DNA of 64,000 nt. Origin: Octopus vulgaris (taxonomy: Eukaryota). Positions 2,189-64,000 of the stretch are shown piece after piece; the first letter of the stretch is position 1, and each line of letters begins with the position of its first letter. The translations under genes and the position numbers were made by a program. Below the pieces are notes generated by a model. The model was not told the DNA's origin, searched no databases, and saw only the letters and a program-made list of their open reading frames with translations. Location: the NCBI GenBank assembly GCA_951406725.2, contig OX597814.1, positions 158,224,001 to 158,288,000 of the forward strand, in the 5' to 3' direction.

Positions 2189-2458
2189 GAAGATGATGAG
2201 GAGGAGGATGAATTTCTGTGCTTACATTGTCAGTAGAAACAGCACTGCATCAGAAAACCCAATAATATATTTGATGAAAAATATTAAACACACACACTAC
2301 GCGTGCGCGCACACACGCACACACCAGCTTGATCCGTTAACACACGGCGTGGACGGTTCTACGATACCCCACGTGATAGTGAGCGGGTTATTATCAGCCT
2401 TCATGTCTCAGATATGGTCAGCTGAGATCTGTGTGTCAGAAAGAAGACTGTTTGCTGG

Positions 2459-2535
<77 letters not shown>

Positions 2536-2836
2536 GTCTGTCTATCTATCTATCTATGACTTGTCCCATCTGTGTGCAGCCCTGTGTGGCCAATAAAGAA
2601 ACTTATCTCTATCTTTATATCTATCTATCTTTGTCTATCTCTATCTATCTATCTCTATCTATCTATCTCTATCTATCTCTATCTCTATCTACGTCTATCT
2701 CTCTATATCTATCTATCTATCTATCTCTATCTATCTCTCTATCTCTATCTCTCTCTATCTATCTCTATCTATCTCTCTATTTCTATCTCTCTCTTTTCTA
2801 TCTATCTATTTCTATCTAAATATAGATAGATAGACA
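2141..2836. repeat. Microsatellite blocks (GAT)n at ~2147-2210 and (TATC)n/(TATCTC)n at ~2458-2836
   Basis: Read directly; these account for ORFs 2121..2819 and 2572..2829. Confidence 0.95.
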
Positions 2837-2953
2837 GACATTTCTTTTTACTATATTATTTTATATCTTATACTAATATTAAAATATTATAAATAAAATA
2901 TGAAAAACAGAGTTGAAATTCCTTTGAATAATATATGTATATATACATGTATA

Positions 2954-2984
<31 letters not shown>

Positions 2985-3073
2985 ATATGTGTGTGTGTGT
3001 GTATATATATATATATGTATACATATGTATGTGTATATATATGTATATGTATGTATATACGTACACACATACT

Positions 3074-3130
<57 letters not shown>

Positions 3131-3670
3131 TATATAGAGGGCATTATTACACATAAATTCCACACGCTATGAGGGACTTTTAAAGTCAAAACTACTAAAA
3201 TAAATAAACATATCGTACCGAATGCAACTCTCGAAGCAAGTCATTTAAAAACAGAATTCAGCTGCAGATCACCTGTGATTTAGTAATCAGTGCAGTGATT
3301 TGCAGTCTTTACTCCTCAGTGCAAGCATAATTCGAGATTTATAATGAATGAACAAAATCAGCATACCAGACGAACAACCATCGTATCCATCGTAGTATAT
3401 AGAACTGTTCACCCCTTATATATCTATGTAAATAGCGGGCTTTTTCGAATTGCATTTCGGTAACAACGTGCATATTCGGAATGAAAATTCAGTATTGAAT
3501 ATACTCCGGTTAAATTTATAATTTAAAAATAGGATAAAATCTTCATAAGAATCTATCATTACGTGTAATAATACCCTCCTTATAATATAAATAAATATAT
3601 GTAAGTGAAAATATTTGTGGATTTCTTCTCTTATGAGGTTTTTTCATATATATATATATATATATATATG

Positions 3671-4487
3671 TATAGAAATTAAATATAAAATATAAATTAC
3701 AAAGTGGGACAAGAACGCAAAAACACACAAGGAGACGACACAAAAAAACAGACGGGTCACTCGAAGCCTCTAATCTTCAGTCGGGAACCGGATCATCTTA
3801 GTAATTTCCGCTGTTTAATCTCGATATTACTCCGACCCGGCCAGCCCCAAGGAAAAACCAAGCCACAGGCATTGGATTTCTTGGAATGAGGGTCGAATTT
3901 ATACGGAACAAAGACAGAATGCCACACGAATATAAATACAAGAAACAAAAATATATATAAAAAAAAACAGAAATAAAAAACACGAATGGTGGACAGTACA
4001 AGGACAGGAGCGTCTTACGACTTTAGACAATTTTTAACTTATCTTGGCTGGCGTATATGAAAAAAGCCTTCAACGGCAAAAACGAAAACAACGTAAGCGT
4101 GGCCGCGATCAGGCCGAAATGACCAGTTTGAACGCGGTCACGTGAGAGCACGGAAGAAAGAGAAAGAAAAAAGAAAGGCAGGGAGCAAGGAATCAAAGAG
4201 AGAGGGAAAGAAAGGGACGAAGGCACCAGGGGAGAGAGAGAGAGAGAAGGGAGTAATAAGAGAGGGGAGAAGAAACAGGATTGGCACAGCAATAGAAATG
4301 ACGGTGCAAATAAGCTGGGGGAAGAATCAGAGGCAAGAAAAGAGAAAGACACATACTATAGAGAGAGTGTGTAAAGACGTCGTACAAGGTAAAAATGTGT
4401 AGTATACATAGGAGATAGGGTTACGTAACGCCGCAATAATATATGTATAGAAATCAAATATAAAATATAAATTACAAAGTGGGACAA
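3671..4487 (-). mobile_element. Non-autonomous PLE-like element with a ~45-bp terminal direct repeat, flanked by (TA)n
   Basis: TATAGAAAT(T/C)AAATATAAAATATAAATTACAAAGTGGGACAA occurs at 3671-3712 and ~4446-4487. Homologous to 25545-25997. Carries a rearranged HHR. Confidence 0.6.
3774..3848 (-). ncRNA. Rearranged (non-circularly permuted) hammerhead ribozyme, copy A
   Basis: Minus strand: GGGGCUGG-CCGGGUC-GGA-GUAA-UA^-UCGAGA-UUAAA-CAGCG-GAAA-UUAC-UAAGAU-GAUCCGG-U-UCCCGA-CUGAAGA. Predicted cut between 3825 and 3824. Confidence 0.7.
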
Positions 4488-6337: not shown

Positions 6338-6341
<4 letters not shown>

Positions 6342-7173
6342 GGACTAAACTAAACGCAAAAGAAATAGACAAAGAAAAATCCCAGCAATGGTTGAGAAGC
6401 TCAGGACTCAAAGCAGAAACAGAGGGATTTTTAATTGCAGCACAAGACCAAAGCCTCCCCACCAGAAATTACCAAAAACATGTAATGAAAAGAAATATTA
6501 CAAGTAACTGCAGAATATGTGGAGATGGACAAGAAACAATAAATCATATTATCTCTAGCTGCCCAGTCCTGGCTAAGAAGGAATATATTCACAGACATGA
6601 CAGAGTTGGAACCTACATACATTGGAAGCTATGCCAACATTATGGAATAACAACAGAAAAAAGATGGTATAGGCACACACCAGAAAAGGTCACAGAAAAC
6701 GAGAAAGCAACCATACTCTGGGATATGCCGATACACACAGATAGAGAAATTAAGGCTAACAGACCAGATATAGTTGTCAGAGATCATGGAGAAAAAAAAT
6801 GCTTTCTAATTGATGTATCAATACCGGCTGATGACAACGTGTCTCTAAAAGAAATGGAGAAACTCTCAAAATACAAAGACCTGGAAATAGAGGTAACTAG
6901 AATGTGGAATCTGAAAACAAACAATTCCTATCATAGTAGGTGCATTAGGCATGATAAAAAAATATTCAGACAAATACATAACAAAAACACCAGGACTTAC
7001 AAACACATATAACATACAGAAAATTGCACTACTAGGCACTGCACACATCCTACGCAGAACACTTTCCATACAATAACCATCAGAGCATCACAACAAATCA
7101 CAGCACATACCCAAGGCACACAGAGCTGTGCTCGGTAGTGAAGTGAAAGCACGCTATAAAAATAAAACTACTG
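6338..7173 (+). mobile_element. 5'-truncated R4/Dong-clade non-LTR retrotransposon (CCHC finger + restriction-like endonuclease) inserted in (TAA)n
   Basis: ORF 6392..7012 shows AAQDQ, CRIC-x5-ETINHIISSC, RHD, ILWD, RPDIV, LIDVSIP and EKLSKY. Frameshift near 6918, then IPIIVGALG...GTAHILR with a stop at ~7076. (TAA)n on both sides (6228-6338, 7174-7263), the known Dong target. Confidence 0.9.
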
Positions 7174-7477: not shown

Positions 7478-7514
7478 ACCAACAACAGCAACAACAACAA
7501 CAATAACAATAACT

Positions 7515-8053
7515 AGGCAGTTACTCTCATGGCTTTTGATATTAACTGATTGGAAGTGTTATCATGTACATTGTCTTGTCTTGGTATCAAAAGATGGGTC
7601 ACAGCAAATATTTTGTTCAATACCACAAATTTACTTGTCATTTGTTTGACCTTAACCAGCTGAAGATGTCCCTTAGTGGCTGACGATATGTGCATTTCTA
7701 GTCACATGCAGAAATAGTGGGGGAGCATCACAGCCATGTGCTGAGAGGAATTCTTTGGGGTTTCAATAATTCACCTCAGGAAACATGAGTATTTTGTTCA
7801 TCATTCTTAAAACAACACTTATTCAGGGACTTTTGAGCAGGATGGGCTACTCGACCTGAAGAAAATTCTAACTGGATTCCAACTGCAAGGTCATGCGCTG
7901 TTTGTCTTGATATGAGATCACTATGTCGTGCACGTATGGTTGTGATGCATGTACCTGGTGTACCCTTATCGGATGGTAGACATGATGGGTATATTGGGAT
8001 TCGTATATTTGTATCCCGGTGTCACTTTGATAGTATGCACTGCTCTCTCACTC
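7515..8053 (+). mobile_element. Non-coding (TAA)n-associated element; an internally deleted copy lies at 15535-15640
   Basis: Both ends match the reverse complement of 15535-15640; both copies end in ...CTCTCTCACTC followed by (AAT)n. Confidence 0.7.
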
Positions 8054-12653: not shown

Positions 12654-12710
<57 letters not shown>

Positions 12711-12719
12711 CACATATAT

Positions 12720-13765
12720 AATAATGTGCTTTGAATGTCACAACAATGCACTATAATAACAAAATGGACTATAATAACTGATGTAATTTAATCATCCATA
12801 GTCTGTTATAATATTTCGGAATATAAGAATTCTTTCTTCAGATATACATCCCTAGGGATTGATCGGGTCACTGCTACAATCGGTTTGCGAACGTTTTTTT
12901 TCTTCTTTTTTTTTCCGGAAGTATCTCACGAAGCTCCTTCCGCTATTCCTCGTGCGTGAGGACGGCCATGTCAACTAGCCCACTCCGGTCCCTCTCTGAG
13001 AAGACACTTTGCAAGGAAATGGGCAAGGGACAGCAATCAATGCACACTAGCAAACTGTCCCATCCGTGACACAGACTTATGCCAACGGGTAAATGTTATG
13101 TATAGAATGCAATGTAACAAATGCAATAAGTTCTATATGGGTAGCACAACAAGACCGTTACACATTCAGATCAAAGAACATTTGAACATGAGAGCCTTCT
13201 CTTTCAGAAAACATCTAGACAGATGTTGGAACACCGACAAAACCATAAGCTACAATTGAGGCTAATGAAAGAAATTTGGGTAACCTAAGAATTAAGGAAG
13301 CTATTCTCATAGACAGACTAGAGCCCCAAATCAACAACAGGCTGGGACTTGGTAGTCAATATATTTTTTAGGTACATCTGGATACATGTAGGTTCTTTTT
13401 TGATGACATGTTCATGTATTATTAAAAAATGAAAATTTTTAAGGGTAAAAAGGGGGGAAGGAAACGGCACATATAATACATAACTTAGAAGCGCTACGGA
13501 TGTGCCTCCACACACGAGCTTGAGACATGGCCGCCCTAACGCACTTCTCACGAGGAATTCCGGAAGGAATGAGGAGACACTTCCAGGGAGAAAAAAGTAC
13601 CGTTGGAAAACCGATTGTAGCAGTGACGCGATCACTCCCTAATGATTATTATAGTCCATTGTTATTATAGTGCATTGTTGTGCTATCAAAACACATTATT
13701 ATTATTTGTTATGTTTTACAAACAATATACAATGCTTCAAGCGAACTACAATACTCTCATATAAA
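12720..13765 (+). mobile_element. Penelope-like remnant with GIY-YIG fragment and inverted terminal arms
   Basis: 13089-13340 reads VNVMYRMQCNKCNKFYMGSTTRPLHIQIKEHL...NLRIKEAILIDRLEPQINNR. 12720-12975 is a diverged reverse complement of ~13515-13705. (TA)n on both sides. Confidence 0.8.
12807..12844 (-). ncRNA. Minimal type-I hammerhead motif
   Basis: UAU-CUGAAGA-A-AGAAU-UCUUAU-AUUCC-GAAA-UAUU-AUA. Confidence 0.55.
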
Positions 13766-15377: not shown

Positions 15378-15533
15378 ATTCATTTACATTATTTACATTA
15401 TTTACATTATTTAGATTTGACGGATATTTGTCCTCATCTGCTGATATACTCTCCAGCCTCCATTAGGTGTCTTGAGGAAATTTCGAAGCTGGGTTCTCAT
15501 TCCTAAGGTATTTTTCGATGTTATTATTATTAT
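15378..15533 (-). mobile_element. Partial second copy of the HHR-bearing SINE-like element (HHR GAAA segment deleted)
   Basis: Reverse complement of ~15838-15985. Confidence 0.8.
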
Positions 15534-15534
15534 T

Positions 15535-15640
15535 GAGTGAGAGAGAAGTGCATGCCAAGACAAAATAATGTACATGATAACTCTTCCAATCAGTTAAGAT
15601 CAGAAACCATGAGAGCCACTGCCTGGTACTGCATCAGGTA
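15535..15640 (-). mobile_element. Internally deleted copy of the 7515-8053 element
   Basis: Only the two ends are retained, joined at ...GTGCATGCC|AAGACAA...; (ATT)n on both flanks. Confidence 0.7.
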
Positions 15641-15669
15641 ATTTATTATTATTATTATTATTATTATTA

Positions 15670-15708
15670 TACTAACCCCAAAACTCCGAGTTCGATTCCA
15701 GTCAGTGA

Positions 15709-15794
<86 letters not shown>

Positions 15795-16016
15795 GTAGTA
15801 GTAGTAATAGTAATAGTAATTATAATAATAATAATAATAATAACATCGTAAAATACCTTAGGAATGAGAACCCAAGTTTGAAATTTCCCCCAAGACACCT
15901 GATGAAGGCTGGAAAGTATATCAGCCGAAACGTTGGTTTAACAACAAAGATGAGGACAAATATCTGTCAAATGTAAATAATGTACGTAACTCATCATCTC
16001 TTAAATATAGAACTGT
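15670..16016 (+). mobile_element. SINE-like element: tRNA B-box, (AAT)n spacer, hammerhead-like tail
   Basis: GAGTTCGATTCC at 15688-15699; CUGAUGA-A-GGCUG-loop-CAGCC-GAAA-CGUU at 15899-15934. Confidence 0.7.
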
Positions 16017-19765: not shown

Positions 19766-20519
19766 AGATATATATTTAAATATGTATATATGTGTGTGCG
19801 AATGTTCCCTGACACAGTATATGAGAGTGTATTAATATTTATCGGTATATGCGGATGTGCGTGTGAGTGTGTGTGTTAGTGTATAGACCCTGCTGCCTGT
19901 ACTGATTTGTCTATAAGCCATGCGATGACAGACATACACTCTGCAATTTAGTGAATGTGTAAGGATGTGTCGGAGTGTATTCAGGTGTGTGTGCATGTGT
20001 GAGTTTTTGTGTGGACGTGTGGGTTTAGGGTTGGATGTGGATGTGTATGTTTTTCTTGTGCAGTGTGGTGGAGGTCGGGCGGCTCTCAGCGGACCAACCG
20101 TGAGGAAGACAATGATAATTTAAATTCAAATCCAATAGTGTATTTATGTCATAAGGAAAATTACTAACTGGAACCCGGACATGCATATATGCCACTTTGG
20201 ATCCTAATGTAAGCGTTATTAATAATATTATGAATGATAATAATGGTAGCATTAATGGTATTGACAACGATAATGATGCTAACTTTAATGACACTTTGGA
20301 AATTAGTAGGAAGTAATATAATGTACTATTGACTATGTATATTTGCATCTAGGTACTAATATGTGTATGTTTATTATCACAATATTAAGTTGAAAAACTG
20401 AAACATTGAATGTGGAACATATATATGTTTACTAATTTATATTATTTATTTACATCATTATGTATATGTATATTTTTATATGTATAGGAGTGTGAGTATA
20501 TGCACTCATATGTATATGT

Positions 20520-20650
20520 ATATCTCCGAAGAGGCCTTATGATATTTTTGTAAATGTCTCATTTATATCTATATATTGACCTACCATAAAAGGCTAATAT
20601 TGGTAAAATGAGAGATACTTATCTACATGGCCGAAACAGCTGTAAGATAT
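20520..20650 (+). ncRNA. Type-I hammerhead with ~100-nt helix II, in a PLE-like tail ending at (TA)n 20915
   Basis: AUAUCU-CCGAAGA-GGCC-[92 nt]-GGCC-GAAA-CAGCUG-UA^-AGAUAU. 6-bp helix I and palindromic helix III; core has U4>C. Confidence 0.7.
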
Positions 20651-20910
20651 AATATTTACTTATATTTATATTTACTTATATTTATATTTACTTATATTTG
20701 TATTCTCTTTTTTATATATATTCTACTTACTATACAACATTACTCTTTTATGTACACTTTTTTATGTACATTCCTTTATGTACACTGATTTGTTCTGCTT
20801 TTTTATGTTTAACCCTACAGTCTCTTAGGTGGTGGTTTAATAAAGTATGTGATTGAGTATTATCTGGTAATTGATATTTGATTTAGATGTATTTCTCCAT
20901 TTTCTTATCT

Positions 20911-20948
<38 letters not shown>

Positions 20949-20987
20949 AAAAAAGGTTTGAAAATGCAATTTAAACGATGTTTATTT

Positions 20988-21028
20988 ACTTAACCGGTTT
21001 CACTCTTTGGTAAAAGATTGTCAAAAGT
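20988..21028 (-). ncRNA. Variant minimal hammerhead-like motif, left palindrome arm
   Basis: ACUU-UUGACAA-UCUUU-UACC-AAAGA-GU-GAAA-CCGG-UU^-AAGU. Core UUGACAA retains 3:8 pairing (U-A in place of C-G). Confidence 0.55.
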
Positions 21029-21041
21029 TACATTTAAGGAA

Positions 21042-21265
21042 ACATTGAATAATATGGGTTCAAAAAAAGTTTTTTACATAATTGTCACATTGAATATTAT
21101 GCATTCAAAAAAGTTTTTTACATAATTGTCACATTGGATATTATGGGTTCAAAAAAAGTTTTTTACATAATTGTCACATTGAATATTATGCATTCAAAAA
21201 GTTTTTTACATAATTGTCACATTGGATATTATGAATTCAAAAATGTTTTTTTATACATAATTGTC
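21042..21265. repeat. ~44-bp minisatellite x5 (alternating variants), mirrored at ~24289-24513
   Basis: ACATTG(A/G)ATATTATG(CA/GG)TTCAAAAAAGTTTTTTACATAATTGTC. Confidence 0.9.
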
Positions 21266-21837
21266 ACATTATTTGGGAAAATTTGGCAGAAAAGGATAAA
21301 ACAAATATATTATTGGGAATTGGTTGCGTTAATTATTGGTTGTCGCAAATTGTCACATTACATGTATATATATACAATCTTTGGTATATATATACAGCGT
21401 TTTGACAGCAAAAATTAAAATGGATTTTTTGTACATCTCAGAATATTTTAAGTATGTTTTTACTGACCTGTCAGTATTAGCAGAAAGGCTGAACTGAGAG
21501 AACAGAAGAAGTAGCCAATGTGGTGTATACTTCCCCTTTATGCATGAATGATTTTGGGGTTATCAGGAGGTTAGTATGCGGGTGTGAATAGATGTGTCCG
21601 TGCCTGCTGGTCAGACAGCGTCTGTTTGTCACACACATATATATACACACAAACACACACACACACAACAACACACACACACACACACACACACACATAG
21701 CATACAAACACACACCACATACAAACAACACACACACACACAGAACACACACACCCACACACAACGCACCCACATATATCACATATACACACAGCACACA
21801 AATATAACATGTATCTATATATAACATACACAGATAT

Positions 21838-21890
<53 letters not shown>

Positions 21891-22607
21891 CACACGCACA
21901 CATACATACATAATATAAATATCACACAAATACACCTAGCATATATATACACACATACAATACACACATACAGCATGTAAGTAATATACATACACAATAT
22001 ATGCATGCAATATACATACGCAATACATACATATAATATATATATATATAGACAATGCATATACATATATACACATATACATATAAATAGTGTATACATA
22101 CACATACATAGATGTACCACATATACACACAACACACATACATACAATGCATACACATACACGTACGCATACATATAATATATATATACACACACACATA
22201 ACATACATACACACACAATGCATACATATATATACACGCAATGCATATACATGTATTCATGCACATATAGCACACCTACAATATACATATATACAGTGCA
22301 CACATACACACAAATATATACACTTAATTGTACACGTACATATACAATACACATACATACAATATACATATACACAATGCGCATGCAAATAATGTACATG
22401 TTTATACACACATAAACATGCAAATAAATATACACATACACACACATACACACACACACATATATATACACACATATATATATATATATACACACATACA
22501 TACATACATACATGCACATACATATATTTTTTCACACACATACACACACATACGTGGCATGCACACGCATGCATTATATATATGTAGGTGATGTATGTGT
22601 GTGAGTG

Positions 22608-22639
<32 letters not shown>

Positions 22640-22810
22640 ACTGTGTGCGTGTGTGTGTATATGTGTGTGTGCGCGCGTTGTATGTGTGTGTGTGTGCACG
22701 TGTGTATATATGTGTGTGTATGTGTGCACTGTGTGCGGGTGTGTGTGTATGTGTGTGTGTGTGTGTGTGTGAGCATTGTGTACGTGTGTATGTATTTACA
22801 TATGTATCTG

Positions 22811-22852
<42 letters not shown>

Positions 22853-23043
22853 TGTGTGTGTATATGCATGGTATGTGTGTATATGTTAGTACTTTGTTTG
22901 TGTGTATGTGCGGCATGTAGAGATATATTTGAGTGTGTACGCTATAGGTTTGTAATTTGTGTGTGTGGGTGGTGGTGAATTTTTTATATATATATATGTG
23001 TGTGTATGTGTGTGAAAAAATATATGTATGTGCATGTATGTAT

Positions 23044-23083
<40 letters not shown>

Positions 23084-23652
23084 ATATATATGTGTGTGTG
23101 TGTATGTGTGTGTGTGTGTATATTTATTTGCATGTTTACGTGTGTATAAACATGTACATTATTTGCATGCGCATTGTGTATATGTATATTGTATGTATGT
23201 GTATTGTATATGTACGTGTACAATTAAGTGTATATATTTGTGTGTATGTGTGCACTGTATATATGTATATTGTAGGTGTGCTATATGTGCATGAATACAT
23301 GTATATGCATTGCGTGTATATATATGTATGCATTGTGTGTGTATGTATGTTATGTGTGTGTGTGTGTATATATATATTATATGTATGCGTACGTGTATGT
23401 GTATGCATTGTATGTATGTGTGTTGTGTGTATATGTGGTACATCTATGTATGTGTATGTATACACTATTTATATGTATATGTGTATATATGTATATGCAT
23501 TGTCTATATATATATATATTATATGTATGTATTGCGTATGTATATTGCATGCATATATTGTGTATGTATATTACTTACATGCTGTATGTGTGTATTGTAT
23601 GTGTGTATATATATGCTAGGTGTATTTGTGTGATATTTATATTATGTATGTA

Positions 23653-23702
<50 letters not shown>

Positions 23703-24526
23703 GTGTGTGTATGTGTGTTATATATCTGTGTATGTTATATATAGATACATGTTATATTTGTGTGCTGTGTGTATATGTGATATATGTGGGTGCGTTGTGT
23801 GTGGGTGTGTGTGTTCTGTGTGTGTGTGTGTGTTGTTTGTATGTGGTGTGTGTTTGTATGCTATGTGTGTGTGTGTTGTGTGTTGTTGTGTGTGTGTGTG
23901 TTTGTGTGTATATATATGTGTGTGACAAACAGACGCTGTCTGACCAGCAGGCACGGACACATCTATTCACACCCGCATACTAACCTCCTGATAACCCCAA
24001 AATCATTCATGCATAAAGGGGAAGTATACACCACATTGGCTACTTCTTCTGTTCTCTCAGTTCAGCCTTTCTGCTAATACTGACAGGTCAGTAAAAACAT
24101 ACTTAAAATATTCTGAGATGTACAAAAAATCCATTTTAATTTTTGCTGTCAAAACGCTGTATATATATACCAAAGATTGTATATATATACATGTAATGTG
24201 ACAATTTGCGACAACCAATAATTAACGCAACCAATTCCCAATAATATATTTGTTTTATCCTTTTCTGCCAAATTTTCCCAAATAATGTGACAATTATGTA
24301 TAAAAAAACATTTTTGAATTCATAATATCCAATGTGACAATTATGTAAAAAACTTTTTTGAATGCATAATATTCAATGTGACAATTATGTAAAAAACTTT
24401 TTTTGAACCCATAATATCCAATGTGACAATTATGTAAAAAACTTTTTTGAATGCATAATATTCAATGTGACAATTATGTAAAAAACTTTTTTTGAACCCA
24501 TATTATTCAATGTTTCCTTAAATGTA

Positions 24527-24567
24527 ACTTTTGACAATCTTTTACCAAAGAGTGAAACCGGTTAAGT
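24527..24567 (+). ncRNA. Variant minimal hammerhead-like motif, right palindrome arm
   Basis: Identical to 20988-21028 on the opposite strand. Confidence 0.55.
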
Positions 24568-24648
24568 AAATAAACATCGTTTAAATTGCATTTTCAAACC
24601 ATTTTTCTTATATAATCCCACTCGTGCGATACCCCACAACTCAACTTT

Positions 24649-28084: not shown

Positions 28085-28112
28085 TCATGAAATATTTTAA
28101 GAAGATATGCCT

Positions 28113-28192
28113 GTCTGAAGAAACCTCATTATATTTTTTTTAAAAAGTAATCCTAAACAAAACCTAGTTAATGAAGAAGAAACAGCTGTAAC
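28113..28192 (+). ncRNA. Hammerhead motif in the PLE 3' tail (long helix II, weak helix I)
   Basis: CUGAAGA...CUCAUUA...UAAUGAAG..GAAA-CAGCUG-UA. Confidence 0.55.
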
Positions 28193-30256
28193 TTGATTTG
28201 TCATTTGTTTATAAAGAAATAATAAAACTGAATTGAACATATCATTTATTGATTCAATTATTTTAATTCACTATTTTGTTTCCATTTCTAATTTATATAC
28301 ATATATAGCAAACTTCGATACTCTCTTAACCCTAGAATGATCAGGAATGTTATCATTTTCTGCAACCGTAGAACATCTCGGAAGCAGAACAAGAAACTGG
28401 CGGATCAACGAGTTGTAAAGAATTTACTCCTATTATTTTATGGTGCAAGCGTTTTTGAATTGAATCAACATGCAACCAGCCAGTTCATGGTAAACATATA
28501 CACCAAAATTCAAACTGGAACACTGAATTTGCTGCAAAGAAATCAAAACTAGTTAAGGACTGAGTAACACATTACTGTAGGTTGTCATCAGTTCTGCTTG
28601 TGGACGTAAGTTATACTACTATCAAGCATCACAGGTGGAGCCACTTGCATGCATGAGCAAATTCAAGATGCAATGGCATTAAAAAAAACCAAAGGATTGA
28701 CTGTATCTCACCAGAACATTCCGCTGCAATTCGAGATGGACAGCAACAATTCGCGATGGACGGCAGCTTCCAGGTAACTTCTTCGATATTAGAAGGTGAA
28801 GAATATACGTGACCACACAGGCTATTTTTCTATGAGTTGTCAAAAAAAAAAAATGATAACACTTTTCTGGCACTTAAAATATTGAAAATTATCGATGAAT
28901 TTTATTGGGTGAATAATTGTTATTGAAAAGCAGAGGACTTCCTAACTCTCACATATTGATCTGGTATAGGAAGATAATGTCAGATATGTACAAAATCATT
29001 TCATCCGAGCTATCTGATAAAGATGATGTTCTACAGCTCTTTAAAGCAAACAATAATCTCCTCTGTGGTCCTATGTAGAGCTATCAGTCCAGCTCTACCA
29101 TTCTCCATGTAAGATAAAACATGCACCAAAAGATATCCTAGAATATTTAATCAGGATATTTAAACCGACAATTAAGGACACCAACTAGGCCTTTCGCGAT
29201 AAGTTTAAAGCCAGGAACTTTTCAGCGCTCTCTCACATGTATTATGTGTGAGTGTGTGTCTGTATACATTTCTAAACTGCATATTATGTGTGAGTGTGTG
29301 TCTGTATATGTAATATATTTTATGTGTATTTGTGTGAACTGATGTGCCTCACCGACATTTCACACATGTGTACACACACACACACACTCTCTCTCTCACC
29401 TATCCTCATACTCAGTTTTCTTCTCATATTATGCACATTCCATCATTCCAAAAATCAACTTAATTACGAACAATCTTCCAGAATATTTGCATCGAAAACT
29501 ACCCTCAGATTTCCCAAATTCCTTATTAATGAAGCCAATATCAAACTCCCCCTACCTTTTAGATCTGAAGCAGCGTTTCCTTTTTCTTTAGAGAGGTTTC
29601 TTGTTCTCGGCTTCCATTTACTTTGGTCTTTTTTACCTGCTCTGTTATCAGTTAAGCAGGCAAGGAAGATTATAACAATCTACTAACGTTAGAATAAGGC
29701 ATCATATACAGGATACGAACAGATAATTCTATAGTTGAGATATCAGGCATCTCATCAATCAAATCGATTGTTTCTACTTTTCTGAAATAACGAAAACCCA
29801 CGCAAAATGTGCTTGTTGATTTATATTGATAGGTTGTATATATTGTAAGAATATCTGCAGAAAGCATATTTAATTTCACTTATTTTTACCTTTAATTCAA
29901 GTTGTTTCACGCAAAGACCGTTTACATTTTACATCCATTTACTGATAACAGCATTAGAAGAGTGATTAGAAATAAAAATAAAATATGCAGGACGAAATCA
30001 TTTTCGATTTAAATAGTTTGAACAATTTTAAAGGAATTTTATAAAAAGTAGAACAATGCAGTTTAGAAATATACACAAGTATAGAAGACAGATAGAATAA
30101 GCGAGGGTGTTTTTCGTGACCTCTAGATCTACAAATAGCAAGTAAATTAGCATCAGCTCGCACCCTACGATCTGAAAACGATGCGCCAAGGATAAAGTAG
30201 TCTGTAGCATGCTACTTCAGAAAAAAGCATTAAATGAGTGACTGTGTTGTAGTCAT

Positions 30257-30459: not shown

Positions 30460-31550
30460 ACGGTTTATGTAGCTGTGAAGACCTCGTCTGTAAAAGTCAG
30501 TTGCATCTGGAGCCAAGACTTTACCTCGGAAATAAGTTCATTATCATCTAAAAAGTGCTTCCTCTTAAAAAAAGACTTTGGAAAGAGGTGGAAGTCAGAT
30601 GGTACAAGGTCGGGAGAGTAAGGGGAATGAGGAAGGATTTCATAGCCGCAGACGTGTGCATTCATCTGGGGAATATGGGCATTGTGAACTGGGGCGTTGT
30701 CTTGGAGAAGGCGGACTCCTTTGGTCAGCATACCACGCCTCTCTGCTTTGTTGGTGTCCCGCAATTTCTGCAGAAGAGATGCATAATATACCCCGTTAAT
30801 TGTGGTACTCTTTGCCAGAAAATCCATCATACCTACTTTGCGCTGGTCCTAAAAGACTGTAAACTTTGCCTTGCTTGCTGAGGGTTGAACACGAGCCTTC
30901 TTTGGAGGTGGTGAGTTATCATGCTTCCATTGCTTGGATTGCAATTTAGTCTCAGGATCATAGTGATGGACCCATTTTTCATCTTCTCAGATGAGTCTGT
31001 CGAAAGAGCTATCCCCGTTTTCTTGGCACATTGCCAAATGAGTCTGGAAGCAATTGACTCATTCCTGCTTCTGGAAAGATGTGAGCATTCGGGGAATCCA
31101 TCGTGCAGACCCACGGATCCTACACGTATCTTCACTTCAAAATGGCGGCTTCCATTTTATGGATGGTGTCATTATCAATGGCGGAATGTGTTGACAAGGA
31201 ATAGGAGCAGTTTCACCCGATGTCTGACTACATTTGAACTGGCGATGCCGATGCTTGATTATGTCGCATGATAGTGCATTGACACCATAAACTTCTTTCA
31301 TCTCATCAAAAGATCTCCTATGGTGTACATCATTTCAAGTATAAGAACCTGATCATTAATCTGCATTCAACTGCCTCCTTTATAACATCTAAGTCCACTT
31401 CAGCAGCCGTAAAAGACAAACGAATATTAGTGGAAAGCTGCAATCTACAATGTGACATGTAGAGACATGTATAATTATACCTTTGCAAGTTCCGTTTACT
31501 GCAATAACAAGAAGTGGATCAGGGGAAATCTTTAATGAACAGCTCTCGTA
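30459..31550 (-). mobile_element. Decayed mariner transposon
   Basis: MDFLAKSTTINGVYYASLL...LLQDNAPVH...LPHSPYSPDLVPSDFHLF; TIR-like start TA-CGAGAGCTGTTCATTAAAG at 31550. Confidence 0.9.
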
Positions 31551-32341: not shown

Positions 32342-32444
32342 GTGTGTGTGTATGTGTGTGTATGTGTGTGTGTGTGTATGTATGAATGTTTGTATGTATA
32401 TCTTACAGAGGGGTGCGCTAAGCAGTGATGAGTAAAATTGAAAT

Positions 32445-32763
32445 GCTATTATCAGTTAGAATATGCTTGAGGCACGTTCGAACTGGGGAACAAGTTACTG
32501 CGTTTTGTCAAGGAAAACATATCCCGTTTGTTGACAAATGGTGGTATACCCCTCGATCAGCTCGTAGCGCCGCTCGCCTAGAGGAGATAACTATTCCGAA
32601 ATGCTAACATCTCACTGTCTGGGTATATGGCGCTGCGAGTCAATCTAGTTGTATACACACCATTTGTCAACAAACGGAATATATTTTCCGTGACAAAACG
32701 CATTGAGTATCTTGTTCCCTAGTTCGAACCAGCCTCAAGTACATTCGGACTGTTAATAACATC
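32445..32763. mobile_element. Foldback element / MITE, almost entirely self-complementary
   Basis: 32445-32549 is inverted at ~32651-32763; inner CTCGTAGCGCC / GGCGCTGCGAG. Its adjacent 5' flank (32402-32440) is inverted at 32198-32238. Confidence 0.7.
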
Positions 32764-35688: not shown

Positions 35689-36843
35689 TTGGATTGGCAA
35701 CTAAGTTACCGCGGTTTTTTTTTTTTTAATTTTGGAATTCATTGCATTTTTAAATTTTGGAATCTATGTTTTTTTCGAGAATTCTATTTTTGAATCATTT
35801 TGGAATCTAGTTTTTTTTTCTGCTAGTTGATTTTAGTTAATTTTTGTTTCATTTTCGACATCTTTTTGCTTTTAATAAAGGTTCGAAGGCCGCAAAAGCT
35901 GCTCGCGACATTTGTGCCGTGTATGGAGAGGGTACCATAGCTGAAAGAACCGCTAGTGATTGGTATACCAAGTTCAAATAATGGAAATTTTGACCTCAAA
36001 GATGCACCTCATTCTGGCCGTCCAGTTAAGTTCGATGAAGAGCGATTAAACCAAATTTTGCACGAAATTTCTCGGCAAACGACAAGGGAACTGGCAGAGA
36101 AAATAAAATGCTCCCACACTGCAATAGAGAAGCATCTTCACTCGATGGGAAATGTTCAGAAGTATGGAGCATGGGTTTTGTATGCTTTAAGTGATAACAA
36201 CAAAAATCAACGAGCCACAATTTCCGCTGGTTTGCTTGCTCGTCACCGCTCAACTCATGGACACAAGCAACGATTTCTTTACTGGCGATGAAAAATGGTG
36301 TCCGTTCATCAATATGTACAGGAATGACTTAGCCCCGGTAAACAAGCGACACCACGCGTAAAACAAGATCCTCATCCGCGTAAAACGATGTTGTGCTTAT
36401 GGTGGGACTGGAAAGGGATTATCCATTACGGATTGCTTGAACGGAACCAAACGGTCAACACGGAACGTTATATTCAACAGATGGAACGATTCAACACGGC
36501 TATTCAAGAAAAAAGACCTAATCGGCAGCATGGAGTTCTGCTGCACGACAGCGCCCGCCCTCATATCGCCAATATGACCAAGAAAGCCATTCAAATGCAT
36601 GGCTGGGAAGTCTTGTCACATCCGCCGAACTCTCCTGATTTGGCACCAACGGATTTCTACCTCTTTCGATCTCTTTCAAATGCTATGCGCGGAGTTTCGC
36701 TCAATACTGATGCAGAATTGAGAGCTTGGTTGGATCAATTTTTCGAGTCGAAATCGGGTAAGTTGTACCAACAAGGTATTGAAAATCTTGTTGAACGTTG
36801 GGAAGAAGTTGTAAACAACAAGGGTGAATACATCTTTGATTAA
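35689..36843 (+). mobile_element. Decayed mariner (DD34D) transposon, right TIR not seen
   Basis: TA-TTGGATTGGCAACTAAG start; DAPHSGRP, TTRELAEK, GAWVLY, TGDEKW, MLCLWWD, LHDSARPH, HPPNSPDLAPTDFYLF, LVERWEEVVNNKGEY. Confidence 0.93.
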
Positions 36844-39035: not shown

Positions 39036-39233
39036 GAAATGTTTTACCATCGTGGCCTAGCGTGTAGAAAAACTAGTCAATAGACTATATATTATTCATT
39101 ATATGTACAGTATACATTTAAACACATAAGCGATGGCCATAATCGGACATCTAAACCGCTAGAAGGAGTAGTTAAAATCCAAATCGCAATTCGGGGTAAT
39201 TCCGAAAGGGAATGAAAAATAAAAGCATTTACC

Positions 39234-39322
39234 ATCTATTTCCTGGACCATGGTTTTAAGCTATCTTCAGAAAATAAGGTAATTTGCTAGGCGAAGCTCT
39301 CATCAGCAGGAAAGCCATAGAT
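39234..39322 (-). ncRNA. Type-I hammerhead (G12>A)
   Basis: AUCUA-UGGC-UUUCCUG-CUGAUGA-GAGCU-[32 nt]-AGCUU-AAAA-CCAUGG-UC^-CAGGAAA-UAGAU. Confidence 0.75.
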
Positions 39323-39721
39323 TAACATATAAGCCTGATGGTAAATGTTTCTATTTTTCAGTCCCATTCGAAATTGCTCCTAATTGTTGTTTGTATTTTA
39401 ACTACTACTTCTAGCGGGTTAGATGTCCGATTATGGGCATCTCTTATGTATAAATGTATACTGTATATTTAATAAATAATATATAGTCTATTGACTAATT
39501 TTTTCACATGCTAGGCCACGGTGGTAAAAAATTTCTAAATAATATTTTACTACCCTGAAATTTATTAATAATAATTTTTTGGCTAATTTTAAAAGAAAAT
39601 CGGCATTATTTCTATTTGCTGTCGGTAAAAAACTGCGCTTGCGCGGTAGATTTGAAAAATTATAACATGTAAGCACGAGGCATGTTCTGTATTGCCTCGG
39701 GCCTATATGTTAATCTTTGGC

Positions 39722-39796
39722 TTTCCTGCCGATGAGAGCTTCGCCTAGCAAATTTCTTTTTTTGCTGATGATAGCTTGAAACCATGGTCCAGTAAA
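39722..39796 (+). ncRNA. Type-I hammerhead (U4>C)
   Basis: UUUCCUG-CCGAUGA-GAGCU-...UAGCAAA/UUUGCUG...-AGCUU-GAAA-CCAUGG-UC^-CAGUAAA. Confidence 0.75.
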
Positions 39797-39839
39797 TAGA
39801 TGTCCGATTATGGCCATCTCTTATGTGTTTAAATGTACA

Positions 39840-39884
<45 letters not shown>

Positions 39885-47116: not shown

Positions 47117-47325
47117 AGACAAAAAATAAATAAATAAAAACAATAATGTTAATGGCCACATGATTAACAACTTCCCAGGAGAAAGTCAACAATATTTAAG
47201 TTTGGACGCTATATTCGATGGAAATTATCACCTGTATCCACAGGATTTCCTCAACACCTTGAATACATCGGGACTACCTATGCATAGGATCTCACTGAAA
47301 AAGTATTGTCCTATAATGCTGCTGT
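47117..47325 (+). mobile_element. Helitron PIF1-like helicase fragment
   Basis: FPGESQQYLSLDAIFDGNYHLYPQDFLNTLNTSGLPMHRISLKKYCPIMLL matches the YPxEFLNxLxxSGLPxHxLxLKxxxPIMLLRN motif; cut by a SINE-C head fragment (47326-47348). Confidence 0.85.
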
Positions 47326-48656
47326 GAAGGCGCATGGCTCAGTGGTTATTTTAACTGTAGCTGCAATATTTTAAGTATAAATATATCTGTCCTGTACTTT
47401 TCCAGGTTTAATAACTTAAGAATATTAACCTCCATGTGTCCGCATTTTTCATTGTAATCCACATTTTTTAGGCAATGCAATTAAACTAATAGATAAAAAA
47501 GATAAATAGATAAAAACTAATGATTAAAAAAGTTTTCATTTTATTTTATACTTTTCTTGAATAATTTTTCAATTATTTTTCATGTTTGATGATTGAATGA
47601 AAATAAGAATATTAATCTAAATAAATAACAAATAAATAGTAAGAGCACATTAGTTACACTGGCTCATGATAAAATCGAAAACTGTAACTAAGATTAGAAA
47701 ATGAGCGAATGCATTCACACTGCGGCACGTGGAGCCATGCTCCCATGGTAGGTAACCTACCACCACTGTAGAGAAAATTATTAGAATAAATTAATAGAAA
47801 TTGATTTATGCTACAAAAGTGGTGCTGCTCTTCCTCGCTCTCTGTCTCTACATTTGTGGCGAGGATATGATGTTATTTCTAGCATTTGAAGTATCTCCAA
47901 AAAGGCTTTACCCCCATAGCAGCAGAAAAAAAGAGAAAGAGAAAGAAATCTTACTGTGATGTAACAAATATAACTGTATACTAAAAAAAAAATAAAAATC
48001 AATGGATTAAGCGCCACATACTTTTTTTGTCACTTCATACCTTACGTTCTACAAACTTTAATGCATAAAATAGCATTTTTAGACACCTCTCGTTTTGATT
48101 TATCATTTGAGCGTAAATGAAATATAGATTGTTTTTAAATTAGGAAAGTTTTTTGAAGCCAAAGTCGATTGGAGGTGTCCCTTACTTTTTTCGGCACCTT
48201 AGGCTTCACAAATTCTTTGTATTAAAAATTCTATTGATAATAGTGAGGTCTTTGTTCCATCATTCAAGCTTAGATGAAAATTAAACATAGTTTGCTTTTA
48301 AAATAAGAGAGTTAGAGTTACTTTGATTCAAAGTCGATATTTCGCTTTACTATCCCCTTTTGTACCTCGCATATTTTAACGTAACTTTTTCCCCCGGTAC
48401 CAAATTTTAATATTTTATGCTAAAATGTAGCTTGGGAGGTGACTATTATAGAACTGATAACAGTTTTAAATTTGTTTGAAAAATCAGTCAATGACAAAGC
48501 TTTGAAGAAGCTGCCAGTGAGTAAATGTTGGCCTTGAAAATATTATTCAACCACTACCGTGGTTGAATGATATGTGTGTGTGTATGTATTAAATAAAATG
48601 AGACAACACAGCCAAAACTATGTGGTATTTCCAGGATATTTATAAAGAGAAAGTTA

Positions 48657-48704
48657 ATCTTACAGCTGTTTCTGGGATGCTGAGGATATCCCTTCATCAG
48701 AGAC
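48657..48704 (-). ncRNA. Minimal type-I hammerhead with intact core, in a short element between microsatellites (~48585-48840)
   Basis: GUCU-CUGAUGA-A-GGGAU-AUCCUCAGC-AUCCC-A-GAAA-CAGCUG-UA^-AGAU. Confidence 0.8.
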
Positions 48705-48845
48705 GATGTGAGATGGTTAAACAGAGGGAAATATTAAAGTTCAGTATTAGGAGTTAATAATGAGTATATAGGGAAATAGGAGAATGAATGTAGAAATAAA
48801 AATGTATAAAGATGTTATAGTTGCAGTTCCATAAACGATATATGT

Positions 48846-50631: not shown

Positions 50632-51330
50632 GGATCTTTACCTTTTGACCTACAGATTTAAAAAAATAATTTTTTGTAACTAAACACTTTCAAACTTCTG
50701 ACACTAGTAGAATGTGTCATATAAAACATATTTTATTCTTAGCATTTTTGAGAAAAACTAATTCGTTAAAGTTCTCATATTTCGGTAATTTCAACCAATC
50801 AATGACGTGTATTCAGCTGAATAAAATTACTGCCGTTGTTTGTCAACAAGAACTTCCGGTGGTGTATTTTTCGTTTGTTACTGTTATTTATGACATCGTT
50901 CGTGCGGTTGTACTGGTTTTAAGGTTTTAGGGTTATGGTTAGGGTTTTAGGTTTAGGATTAGGGTTTTAGGTTTAGGGGTAGGGTTTTAGGGTTAGGGGT
51001 AGGGGTAGGTTTTTAGGGTTAGGGTTAGAGTTTTAGGGTTAGGTTTAGGGTTGTCATAAATAACAGTGACAAACTAAATATACACCACCGGAAGTTCTTG
51101 TTGACAAACAACAGCAGTACTTTTATTCAGCTGAATACACGTCATTGGTTGGTTGAAATTCGAAATAGGACAACTTTAACGTGAAATAACTTCGTAAATA
51201 TAAGTTTTTCTCAAAAATACTAAGAGTCAAAGATGTTTTATATGACACATTCTACCAGTGTCCGAGGTCTGGAAGTGTTTAGTTACAAACAAATAATTTT
51301 TTAAATCTGTAGGCCAAAAGGTAAAGATCC
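50632..51330. mobile_element. Foldback DNA element with ~270-bp TIRs and a telomere-like core
   Basis: GGATCTTTACCTTTTGACCTACAGATTT / AAATCTGTAGGCCAAAAGGTAAAGATCC; degenerate (TTAGGG)n at ~50915-51052; flanks AAAAAAAG / AAAAAACG. Confidence 0.88.
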
Positions 51331-60204: not shown

Positions 60205-60854
60205 TTGGGTGGTGTATACCTATCGCCATTTGGTGTATTACGGTGGATAACACATTTTCATAGAGAAACTATCGTAAAACTATAATTTGTTTTTGTTAGC
60301 AAGTTCATTAACCTGCTTCGATAGCAATTTTAAGCTGATGAGAAGAGGGTGATGACTAGAAGTTGTAGGAAATTATTCCAGATAAGGGTACAAATTGTTG
60401 GATCCGAAAATGTGGCCTATGTTCTAGAGTTAAGAGAAAAGTGTACATATTGTTGGGATAGGCGAAGGAGGAGCATATTGTAAAACTAGCGTAGAGCGCT
60501 GAATTCCATATCACCGCCTCTGAGTATACATGATATCTAAAAATGTGGTATACGAAAAATGAAAAAACAAAAGAAAACAGAAGTAGCTAGCTAGTAGAAA
60601 ATAAAAGCCCAAGATAAAGAGACGTCCCAAAAATGATTTCAAAAACCCATGGAAAAATGATATGGCAAAATATGGAATGAGTTGTGATGACAACGTGGTT
60701 TAATCATTCGGTATATATATACACATATATGCCTCTGTGTGTGTGTGTGTGTACATATGTATATATCTATATATGCGTATACGTAGATATGGAACAATAA
60801 GAATGAGTACTCAGCAAAGCATCGGTGGATAGAGATTCTTTGTTTGTCTATTAA

Positions 60855-60978
60855 GGCTACCATTGGTTTCATGCTTAGGAATACTTCATCAGTTATCAAT
60901 ACTATCACATGGAACATTGGTGTTCGTCTCCATTCTGGAGTTGTTGAGGTAATCCCTAGCATGACACCGATGGTAGCC
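60855..60978. mobile_element. 124-bp MITE flanked by TTAA
   Basis: TTAA-GGCTACCATTGGTTTCATGCT...AGCATGACACCGATGGTAGCC-TTAA. Confidence 0.75.
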
Positions 60979-61004
60979 TTAACACACAAATGTATATATG
61001 TATG

Positions 61005-61323: not shown

Positions 61324-61423
<100 letters not shown>

Positions 61424-61693
61424 TTAATAAGGGTGAGAGAATTAGATACTAATTTAATAGTATATTTATTCCACACCAAGTGGCCTAGTGCTTCGAGAAA
61501 CCTGGATTATTATAATATTTTATAACATATTATAATATTTTTACAAAATAAATATAAGAGAGTGGTCACTATATTGCTCACTCTAGCACCAGTTAATCCA
61601 AAAGGTTTCAAACACGAAAATACATGCTTACCATGAAAGTCAGTACGATTGTTAGCTCACACGGACAGGGCAAATAAAAAATAACAAAAATAC

Positions 61694-61790
61694 AGATTAT
61701 TTTGGGACAATTGTTTCGCTATTAATGAATTAAATGTAATTTTACTTACAAAAAAAAAATCCATTTGTAGCTCTTCAGCCAAGACTATCT
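61694..61790 (-). ncRNA. Type-I hammerhead, array unit 1
   Basis: AGAUAGUCUUGG-CUGAAGA-GCUA-[hairpin]-UAGC-GAAA-CAAUUG-UC^-CCAAAAUAAUCU. Confidence 0.88.
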
Positions 61791-62231
61791 GGATGAAATC
61801 CACTCAATCACACGCCAGATTTTACCATAACGATAAATACGCGTGTGGTTCAATTGATTACATCCGACGTTATAATTCAAATGCCCCAACCAACAGCGCG
61901 CCAAACTCACACGGAAAACAAATACAGCATTTAGAAATAAATGCAGCATAATTATAATTAATTAATAAGGGTGAGAGAATTAGATACTAATTTAATAGTA
62001 TATTTATTCCACACCAAGTGGCCTAGTGCTTCGAGAAACCTGGATTATTATAATATTTTATAACATATTATAATATTTTTACAAAATAAATATAAGAGAG
62101 TGGTCACTATATTGCTCACTCTAGCACCAGTTAATCCAAAAGGTTTCAACCACGAAAATACATGCTTACCATGAAAGTCAGTACGATTGTTAGCTCACAC
62201 GGACAGGGCAAATAAAAAATAACAAAAATAC

Positions 62232-62327
62232 AGATTATTTTGGGACAATTGTTTCGCTATTAATGAATTAAATGTAATTTTACTTACAAAAAAAAATCCA
62301 TTTGTAGCTCGTCAGCCAAGACTATCT
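62232..62327 (-). ncRNA. Type-I hammerhead, array unit 2
   Basis: As unit 1, with core CUGACGA. Confidence 0.88.
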
Positions 62328-62765
62328 GGATGAAATCCACTCAATCACACGCCAGATTTTACCATAACGATAAATACGCGTGTGGTTCAATTGATTACAT
62401 CCGACGTTATAATTCAAATGCCCCAACCAACAGCGCGCCAAACTCTCACGGAAAACAAATACAGCATTTAGAAATAAATGCAGCATAATTATAATTAATT
62501 AATAAGGGTGAGAGAATTAGATACTAATTTAATAGTATATTTATTCCACACCAAGTGGCCTAGTGCTTCGAGAAACCTGGATTATTATATTTTATAACAT
62601 ATTATAATATTTTTACAAAATAAATATAAGAGAGTGGTCACTATATTGCTCACTCTAGCACCAGTTAATCCAAAAGGTTTCAACCACGAAAATACATGCT
62701 TACCATGAAAGTCAGTACGATTGTTAGCTCACACGGACAGGGCAAATAAAAAATAACAAAAATAC

Positions 62766-62860
62766 AGATTATTTTGGGACAATTGTTTCGCTATTAATGA
62801 ATTAAATGTAATTTTACTTAAAAAAAAAATCCATTTGTAGCTCGTCAGCCAAGACTATCT
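62766..62860 (-). ncRNA. Type-I hammerhead, array unit 3
   Basis: As unit 2. Confidence 0.88.
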
Positions 62861-63301
62861 GGATGAAATCCACTCAATCACACGCCAGATTTTACCATAA
62901 CGATAAATACGCGTGTGGTTCAATTGATTACATCCGACGTTATAATTCAAATGCCCCAACCAACAGCGCGCCAAACTCTCACGGAAAACAAATACAGCAT
63001 TTAGAAATAAATGCAGCATAATTATAATGAATTAATAAGGGTGAGAGAATTAGATACTAATTTAATAGTATATTTATTCCACACCAAGTGGCCTAGTGCT
63101 TCGAGAAACCTGGATTATTATAATATTTTATAACATATTATAATATTTTTACAAAATAAATATAAGAGAGTGGTCACTATATTGCTCACTCTAGCACCAG
63201 TTAATCCAAAAGGTTTCAACCACGAAAATACATGCTTACCATGAAAGTCAGTACGATTGTTAGCTCACACGGACAGGGCAAATAAAAAATAACAAAAATA
63301 C

Positions 63302-63397
63302 AGATTATTTTGGGACAATTGTTTCGCTATTAATGAATTAAATGTAATTTTACTTACAAAAAAAAATCCATTTGTAGCTCGTCAGCCAAGACTATCT
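63302..63397 (-). ncRNA. Type-I hammerhead, array unit 4
   Basis: As unit 2. Confidence 0.88.
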
Positions 63398-63617
63398 GGA
63401 TGAAATCCACTCAATCACACGCCAGATTTTACCATAACGATAAATACGCGTGTGGTTCAATTGATTACATCCGACGTTATAATTCAAATGCCCCAACCAA
63501 CAGCGCGCCAAACTCTCACGGAAAACAAATACAGCATTTAGAAATAAATGCAGCATAATTATAATTAATTAATAAGGGTGAGAGAATTAGATACTAATTT
63601 AATAGTATATTTATTTT

Positions 63618-64000
63618 TGTATTTTTGTTATTTTTTATTTGCCCTGTCCGTGTGAGCTAACAATCGTACTGACTTTCATGGTAAGCATGTATTTTCGTGG
63701 TTGAAACCTTTTGGATTAACTGGTGCTAGAGTGAGCAATATAGTGACCACTCTCTTATATTTATTTTGTAAAAATATTATAATATGTTATAAAATATTAT
63801 AATAATCCAGGTTTCTCGAAGCACTAGGCCACTTGGTGTGGAATAAATATACTATTAAATTAGTATCTAATTCTCTCACCCTTATTAATTAATTATAATT
63901 ATGCTGCATTTATTTCTAAATGCTGTATTTGTTTTCCGTGAGAGTTTGGCGCGCTGTTGGTTGGGGCATTTGAATTATAACGTCGGATGTAATCAATTGA
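63618..64000 (+). repeat. Inverted continuation of the 537-bp array (runs off the window)
   Basis: Reverse complement of the array unit, starting TGTATTTTTGTTATTTTTTATTTGCCC. Confidence 0.95.

Follow-up and report, generated by a model that had tools for sequence, protein, structure and literature searches.

A strand switch close to a predicted hammerhead cut in a tandem non-coding array of Octopus vulgaris

A non-coding tandem array at the end of a 64,000-nucleotide stretch of Octopus vulgaris DNA (assembly GCA_951406725.2, contig OX597814.1, positions 158,224,001 to 158,288,000 of the forward strand; hereafter the window) flips strand head-to-head at 63615-TT-63618, with an RNA-sense unit running from 63618, 11 nt past a predicted hammerhead ribozyme (HHR) GUC cut (+12). 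A second, unrelated family at 39 kb is joined in the same layout, one arm again starting within the first 12 nt past a predicted cut. The inversion itself is a known feature of Penelope-like elements (PLEs), and judged from the sequence its position possibly marks the end of a self-cut RNA template. At best, some insertions are biased towards a near-cut 5' end; this is neither the cause of inversion nor a rule, and the prospects that this bias is real in some form are about even.

Results

The 63-kb array and its predicted ribozymes

The window ends in a 4.1-copy head-to-tail array at 61415-63615 with a period of 534-538 (~536 bp) and units that are ~99% identical (Table 1). The array is non-coding, and no Pfam family was assigned to its four ORFs (150 ORFs tested). 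The (TA)45 microsatellite at 61329-61418 is likely the priming or target site of the array.

The CUGANGA, GAAA and NUH core elements are present in type I order in 4/4 units. In the last unit the motif has a long helix II, GAAA at 63325, a palindromic helix III and a helix I 3' strand covering +1 to +13, the predicted GUC cut falling between 63314 and 63313. The same motif occurs in the other left units with cores at 61778, 62315 and 62848, giving four minus-strand motifs with predicted cuts after plus coordinates 61706, 62244, 62778 and 63314. Helix I comprises 13 bp with two mismatches, and at N7, the one free position of the core, all four bases are seen across window copies and public contigs. 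A strict hammerhead descriptor returned five matches over the window, the four array sites plus 15899, compared with 0.03 per shuffled window (60 shuffles, maximum one match). In a constrained fold the motif reaches -18.5 kcal/mol with helices I and II both formed. The palindromic helix III forms 8-bp self-duplexes of -6.4 and -11.2 kcal/mol, which could permit dimer activity, and helix I energies are modest at -8.5 and -10.7 kcal/mol. Rfam hammerhead models gave no match at E up to 1 for the window or up to 10 for both loci, a miss that may result from the long helix II insertions. A tandem non-coding repeat with a predicted hammerhead in each unit and high copy number fits a non-LTR retrozyme, the class to which the array is assigned on its sequence.

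Table 1. Coordinates of the arrays, junctions and related features in the window
Feature	Positions	Strand	Remarks
Left arm, 63-kb array	61415..63615	-	4.1 head-to-tail units, non-coding; 5' end at +233/+236 of predicted cut
(TA)45 microsatellite	61329..61418	.	abuts left arm's 3' end (RNA sense)
Type I hammerhead motif, last left unit	63301..63398	-	helix I 5' strand 63398-63386, CUGACGA 63385-63379
Inversion junction	63612..63627	+	8-nt direct repeat (TATTTTTG twice)
Right (inverted) arm, 63-kb array	63618..64000	+	starts +12; runs off window end
Left arm, 39-kb family	39037..39336	-	-91 to about +210; core at 39306, predicted cut after 39246
Right arm, 39-kb family	39337..39845	+	starts +10 (to +12); one 462-nt unit, then second copy
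Third-family head-to-head pair	15403..15984	.	right arm minimal hammerhead, core 15899, cut after 15934
Doubtful head-to-head pair	60843..60990	.	hammerhead-like core and GAAAC in both arms
Decayed Penelope-like element	12710..13709	+	Cys-rich linker, GIY-YIG end of ORF (~12975-13340) and 3' region

The strand switch at 63.6 kb

Unit alignment reproduced the strand switch at 63615/63618 and the start of the new arm 11 nt past the GUC cut, both as described in an earlier sequence-only reading of this DNA. That reading had also placed the start at the end of the helix I 3' strand, and it does lie within the last 1-3 nt of that strand. The left arm, by comparison, has its 5' end 232 nt past the cut when measured on the copy with a 3-nt deletion and 235 nt past it on the other copies. 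Two T, previously described as extra, are indeed present at the junction, but because they complete an 8-nt direct repeat they are better read as templated. Its first copy is made up of the left arm's last 4 nt, TT and the 2 nt with which the right arm begins, and the next 8 nt are identical to it. When random junctions with a 2-nt filler were simulated 200,000 times, 0.05% of them produced a tandem repeat of at least 8 nt across the join (P ~0.0005).

The join looks like microhomology-primed, templated end-joining, in which, after annealing by a 4-nt microhomology at +14, a short stretch would be copied from the template before the strand slipped and re-annealed at +12. Such a combination of microhomology and templated addition is usually attributed to polymerase-theta-type end-joining. 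The last 4 nt of the left arm match 13 sites in the unit, one of them at +14, and weighting for microhomology raises the null for an end within +1 to +15 to 7-8% per junction; the microhomology around +12/+14 thus makes the site attractive even without a ribozyme.

The right arm carries the majority bases of the left units and the arms are 99.2-99.7% identical, while no single left stretch is matched exactly. Alleles that are rare in the family, at the 63235/63238 equivalents, are present in both arms, suggesting one donor lineage. A private base of the neighbouring left unit, at 63029, is absent from the right arm.

The 39-kb family

A start at 39337, 9 nt past the cut, had been reported for the inverted arm at 39 kb and agrees with the alignment; a 2-nt arm overlap (blast ends 39338/39697) widens it to +10 to +12. 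The left arm has its 5' end 91 nt upstream of its own cut. The join is head-to-head with arms 85% identical and the layout is that seen at 63 kb, and each arm extends, past the 3' end of the other, into sequence absent from that other arm. The second copy in the right arm contains a hammerhead (predicted cut after 39789) and ends in (TA)21. The helix I 3' strand covers +1 to +12, so that at both loci the near-cut start falls 1-3 nt inside the distal end of this strand, and the 39-kb start does not lie in low-complexity sequence. The cores are imperfect, GAAA being replaced by AAAA in the left arm and CUGA by CCGA in the third copy; with a single core change apiece, the two copies together make up a full core. 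In constrained folds the third copy adopts the hammerhead topology and the left arm prefers another fold. The 63- and 39-kb families are unrelated, their local score lying within the block-shuffle range (reached in 235 and 170 of 300 shuffles); on this point, and on the head-to-head orientation of both joins, the sequence-only reading was correct.

Frequency of near-cut ends in the window

At each junction one arm only is near the cut, its partner lying at +233/+236 (63 kb) or -91 (39 kb). No end in the window falls exactly at the cut (+1), the ends being found at +12 and +10 to +12 instead. The chance of finding one of two ends within +1 to +13 at both junctions is 0.003, or 0.014 for a window of +/-15, P values which are nominal as both windows were chosen after the fact. 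Near-cut ends occur at 2/3 solid (or 2/4) hammerhead junctions, with P of 0.007-0.04 for +1 to +13 and up to 0.17 for +/-15, in a DNA window that was itself picked for the coincidence.

Other head-to-head pairs and repeats

The pair at 15.7 kb is a counter-example: the cut of its left arm is deleted, and each 5' end lies >100 nt upstream of the cut. Two insertions rather than one event may be involved. This family (15403-15984) carries (AAT)n; 22 nt including the cut are missing from its left copy, which contains a segment matching 7512-7587, near a zf-RVT fragment at 6338-7009. At 60.9 kb both arms keep the hammerhead-like core, which puts the junction upstream of both; this second counter-example is doubtful as helices I and II were unsupported in the constrained fold. 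The shared "rule" proposed for the inverted junctions is accordingly not upheld: the partner arms lie at +233/+236 and -91, and neither the 15.7-kb pair nor the doubtful 60.9-kb pair has a near-cut end.

The PLE remnant at 12710-13709 has an inverted 5' copy abutting (TA)n, so that PLEs and the inverted layout coexist in one genome. Its nearest proteins are 76-80% identical and are labelled Octopus by their sources. Self-blast of the arrays against this remnant gave no match. It has no recognisable cut site and was left out of scoring; the pairs at 12.7-13.7, 20.9-24.6 and 32.4-32.8 kb were all excluded from cut-distance scoring on this ground. The second of these, at 20941-24614, is an inverted duplication whose 1.6-kb arms are 98% identical; (TA)n flanks each arm on the outside, and 44/45-bp subrepeats lie close to both ends. 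The third, at 32443-32762, is an asymmetric palindromic pair, 75% identical, with its right end in (TA)n and no recognised hammerhead.

Three solo hammerhead-like motifs with the same palindromic helix III were observed at 48650-48712 (-), 20514-20656 (+) and 28110-28195 (+); the 20.5-kb motif has a very long helix II and the 28.1-kb motif a degenerate one. The window also contains 260-bp terminal inverted repeats flanking degenerate TTAGGG-like repeats (50632-51330), Mariner-type transposase fragments (Pfam Transposase_1; 967-1209, 30468-30848 and 35941-36840) and a Pif1 2B fragment (47130-47324).

The family in public contigs

One 63-kb unit was compared with the contigs of four sequencing runs from four studies. 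The family is high-copy, with 489 to 4171 contigs aligned per run and many variants. At least half of the unit's words were found in 20/24 public-run entries (10 studies), all as contigs, and none of the runs listed was an RNA dataset carrying the unit. The TA-flanked 3' end of the window (63023 equivalent, +291) recurs in five contigs of one run, X3; four contigs have another TA-flanked end, at +171.

The joints listed comprise the tandem wrap and three skips, from +268 to -12, +93 to +14 and +2 to -68; an additional contig joint runs from about -79 to +158. The skip with a 5' end at +2 corresponds to a variant in run X3 that lacks exactly the core through the first base past the cut (joint 63312 to 63381). 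No strand-switch joint, including the window's own junction, is among the four joints listed in the four runs; as contigs drop rare joints, its absence is neither support nor refutation.

Loose ends were sorted by eye for the 24 of 213 listed. Four linker rows from run X1 were excluded (a palindromic library linker, presumably a proximity-ligation linker), together with six sister-family rows leaving at 63273/4, five at an A-run indel and three local indels, and two TA-flanked 3' ends were set aside. The loose ends kept as 5' ends are +355, +244, +86 and +7 (63307), which with four ends from the joint tables give eight usable 5' ends. Two of these eight, +2 and +7, fall within +1 to +13 (nominal P 0.018, from the 24 of 213 loose ends listed and the joints), and 3/4 non-tandem contig joints have an end at most 14 nt from the cut (nominal P 0.006). 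The +2 and +7 ends both come from run X3, which has another species label; a plain deletion could account for one of them and a diverged sister family for the other. Conserved regions may also yield longer contigs. The excess of contig 5' ends near the cut is a hint and not a test.

A sister family occurs in all four runs (63269-63340); its resemblance is confined to the 3' half of the hammerhead and the 40 nt past the cut, beyond which it diverges.

Metagenome loci

An exact 21-mer of the unit had no match in metagenome contigs, and a generic minimal-hammerhead pattern matched 74 loci in viral contigs. Searching metagenome contigs for the PLE endonuclease yielded 26 loci, several with hammerheads. 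An inverted copy of element sequence was present in 2/26, at a contig edge within the ORF in one locus and next to no recognisable hammerhead in the other, and 0/26 could be scored for cut-linked ends. A representative-protein search with a PLE/MAP7 fused gene model added nothing. Minimal hammerheads with a palindromic helix III were seen downstream of the PLE endonuclease ORFs in L078 (2357-2385), L079 (901-935), L083 (2775-2810), L087 (1150-1185), L088 (2358-2393), L089 (1333-1360), L090 (4338-4365) and L091 (1896-1924); L092 and L093 carry a U3-A8-type core variant.

Discussion

Comparison with known systems

Animal non-LTR retrozymes are described as non-coding, AT-rich tandem repeats with a type I hammerhead in each unit and have been proposed to be non-autonomous PLE derivatives, most families having at most seven units (Cervera and de la Pena 2020, PMC7229834, in part; Li et al. 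2026, 10.64898/2026.07.22.740005, in part). The Octopus unit, at 536 bp, is longer than the typical ~300 bp given in the sections consulted of these accounts and has a very long helix II; the same sections describe neither inverted arms nor the position of array ends relative to the cut. Linear, multimeric, self-processed retrozyme RNAs occur in salamanders (PMC7229834, in part).

PLE insertions combine a partial tandem with a head-to-head, inverted, 5'-truncated copy, also in Naiads, which have no canonical hammerhead (PMC8557442, in part), and head-to-head is the commonest PLE arrangement (PMC3846280, in part). The Octopus arrays share with PLE insertions the partial tandem, the inverted 5'-truncated copy and a (TA)n or AT-rich target, and with PLE hammerheads the small palindromic helix III (PMC4209133). 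They differ in having no ORF, and any passenger status would be that of a PLE dependent in general terms. Since Naiads carry the same inversions, the ribozyme is not the cause of inversion. The role of the hammerhead in PLEs has been called unclear (PMC8557442, in part) and without in vivo evidence (PMC4209133, in part). Purified PLE nicks and extends both target strands, prefers AT-rich DNA and starts internally on the RNA; hammerhead mutants (PAc) left TPRT products unchanged in vitro, and RNA-seq reads with a start or end at the cut were absent (PMC11167929). Hammerhead cleavage was dispensable in this one reconstituted system, and the direct evidence on PLE hammerheads consulted here speaks against ribozyme-set ends. 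The sections consulted of PMC8557442, PMC3846280 and PMC11167929 give no cut-linked breakpoint.

With other ribozymes the idea has precedent, as cut sites are established to shape insertion 5' ends for R2 (HDV-like; PMC3774820, in part) and have been proposed to do so for Perere-3 (twister; PMC8501958, in part). There, according to the portions consulted, the junction is with target DNA and lies at, or is tied to, the cut, whereas the Octopus junction joins cDNA to cDNA 9-11 nt downstream, involves one arm only and concerns a hammerhead. In L1 twin-priming, too, two cDNAs are joined head-to-head, and microhomology or end-joining features are reported for L1 inversion junctions (PMC11702581, in part). 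In L1, however, the second cDNA is primed within ~10 nt of the first stop (PMC11702581, in part), and the corresponding gap at 39 kb would be ~230 nt. No report of inversion breakpoints linked to a hammerhead cut was found in a search of the open-access literature.

Possible run-off at a ribozyme-cut end

The array is most likely a non-autonomous PLE passenger, a non-LTR retrozyme. We tentatively favour a reading in which its reverse transcription sometimes reaches a ribozyme-cut RNA end and the cDNA loses terminal nucleotides on joining, which is possible and falls short of probable. A PLE reverse transcriptase acting in trans would insert the array, copying two cDNAs from a single donor RNA lineage; if both target strands served as primers, the cDNA 3' ends would come together head-to-head. 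The template would be a partly cleaved linear multimer with the cut site as its 5' end. One cDNA would run off at +1 and lose ~10 nt as the ends were joined by microhomology end-joining, with trimming and templated addition. Because the left arm spans four hammerhead sites, it must have been copied from a circle or from a multimer left uncut or only partly cut, unless the units multiplied once the array was in place. Run-off of one cDNA only at the cut accounts for just one arm per junction being near it. The offsets of +12 and +10 to +12 in two unrelated families support run-off, as do the contig 5' ends at +2 and +7, and the 8-nt junction repeat (P 0.0005) fits end-joining close to a cDNA end. 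Against it, the loss of 9-11 nt has to be assumed, the partner arms and the 15.7-kb and (doubtful) 60.9-kb junctions lack a near-cut end, the PAc mutants gave unchanged TPRT products, and in the retrozyme literature 8/9 Xenopus retrozyme dimers were uncleaved in vitro. In broader terms, that in vivo hammerhead cleavage sets the 5' end of PLE-copied RNA, so that 5' junctions of unrelated retrozyme families accumulate within 15 nt past the cut, is conceivable and to be held with corresponding reserve.

Alternatives to run-off

The position may instead reflect chance and microhomology, a reading we consider rather unlikely. The pairs would then be PLE head-to-head insertions of the usual kind, 5'-truncated at arbitrary points, with AT-rich ends drawn to the T-rich tract behind helix I, in a window picked for the coincidence. 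The 13 matching sites and the weighted null of 7-8% point this way, as does the observation that 0/2 of the junctions not picked by the sequence-only reading are near a cut. Inversions in HHR-less Naiads (PMC8557442, in part) and opposite-strand hammerhead pairs of Schistosoma, 100-700 bp apart with both arms keeping the ribozyme (PMC4209133), also agree with chance placement. It does not explain why the 39-kb start lies outside low-complexity sequence, and two further near-cut ends, +2 and +7 in run X3, were obtained independently of the window.

Alternatively, helix I could act as a roadblock: reverse transcriptase coming from the 3' side would stall where it meets the folded ribozyme, whether cut or uncut, and 5' ends would pile up at distal helix I. 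We judge this to be unlikely. The starts, 1-3 nt inside the distal end of 3' strands spanning +1 to +13 and +1 to +12, would require no trimming, and TPRT in vitro is templated mainly by uncut RNA (PMC11167929). Yet four such helices were passed by the left arm, helix I is modest at both loci (-8.5 and -10.7 kcal/mol), and the contig ends at +2 and +7 lie deeper in the helix.

A single cDNA that stopped at +236, folded back and re-primed on itself at +14/+12 would make the near-cut site one of DNA re-priming, involving no RNA end. One rare haplotype in both arms and the 4-nt microhomology with templated addition would be expected from such self-priming, which is described as a minor junction class for R2 (PMC11331408) and has been proposed for PLE inversions (PMC3846280, in part). 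This origin is nonetheless improbable, as each 39-kb arm has sequence beyond the 3' end of the other and the 63-kb right arm is without the neighbouring unit's private base at 63029, though this base may be later.

The sequence-only reading had gone further, proposing that the ribozyme-made RNA 5' end sets where cDNA synthesis stops and where two cDNAs join, and that this explains PLE inverted ends generally. The offsets at 63 and 39 kb and the X3 ends at +2 and +7 lend the first part some support, but the partner arms are far from the cut and the PAc hammerhead mutants gave unchanged TPRT products in vitro (PMC11167929). The general mechanism is not supported, as PLE clades without a canonical hammerhead also invert (PMC8557442, in part); with the counter-examples at 15.7 and, doubtfully, 60.9 kb, and an A. 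vaga inverted pLTR just 37 bp shorter than the full pLTR (PMC3846280, in part), this strong form is very improbable. An assembly or library foldback artefact at 63.6 kb is the least credible of all: the arms are nearly identical (99.2-99.7%), the junction is absent among the joints listed in four runs and the far end of the right arm is outside the window, but the join is asymmetric by some 310 nt with a templated-looking repeat, the right arm lacks the 63029 base and has no exact left match, contigs drop rare joints, and old loci such as the 39-kb pair show the same layout with arms 85% identical.

Implications

With a family of such high copy number, a plot of breakpoints against the cut offers a cheap and direct test of the run-off reading, that is, of cut linear RNA as template. 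If the plot were flat, nothing would set the locus apart from other retrozyme arrays whose ends are inverted in the usual way. If run-off is true, linear cut multimers would serve as insertion templates besides circles or uncut RNA, and the junctions would provide genome-scale evidence that PLE and retrozyme hammerheads cut in the germ line.
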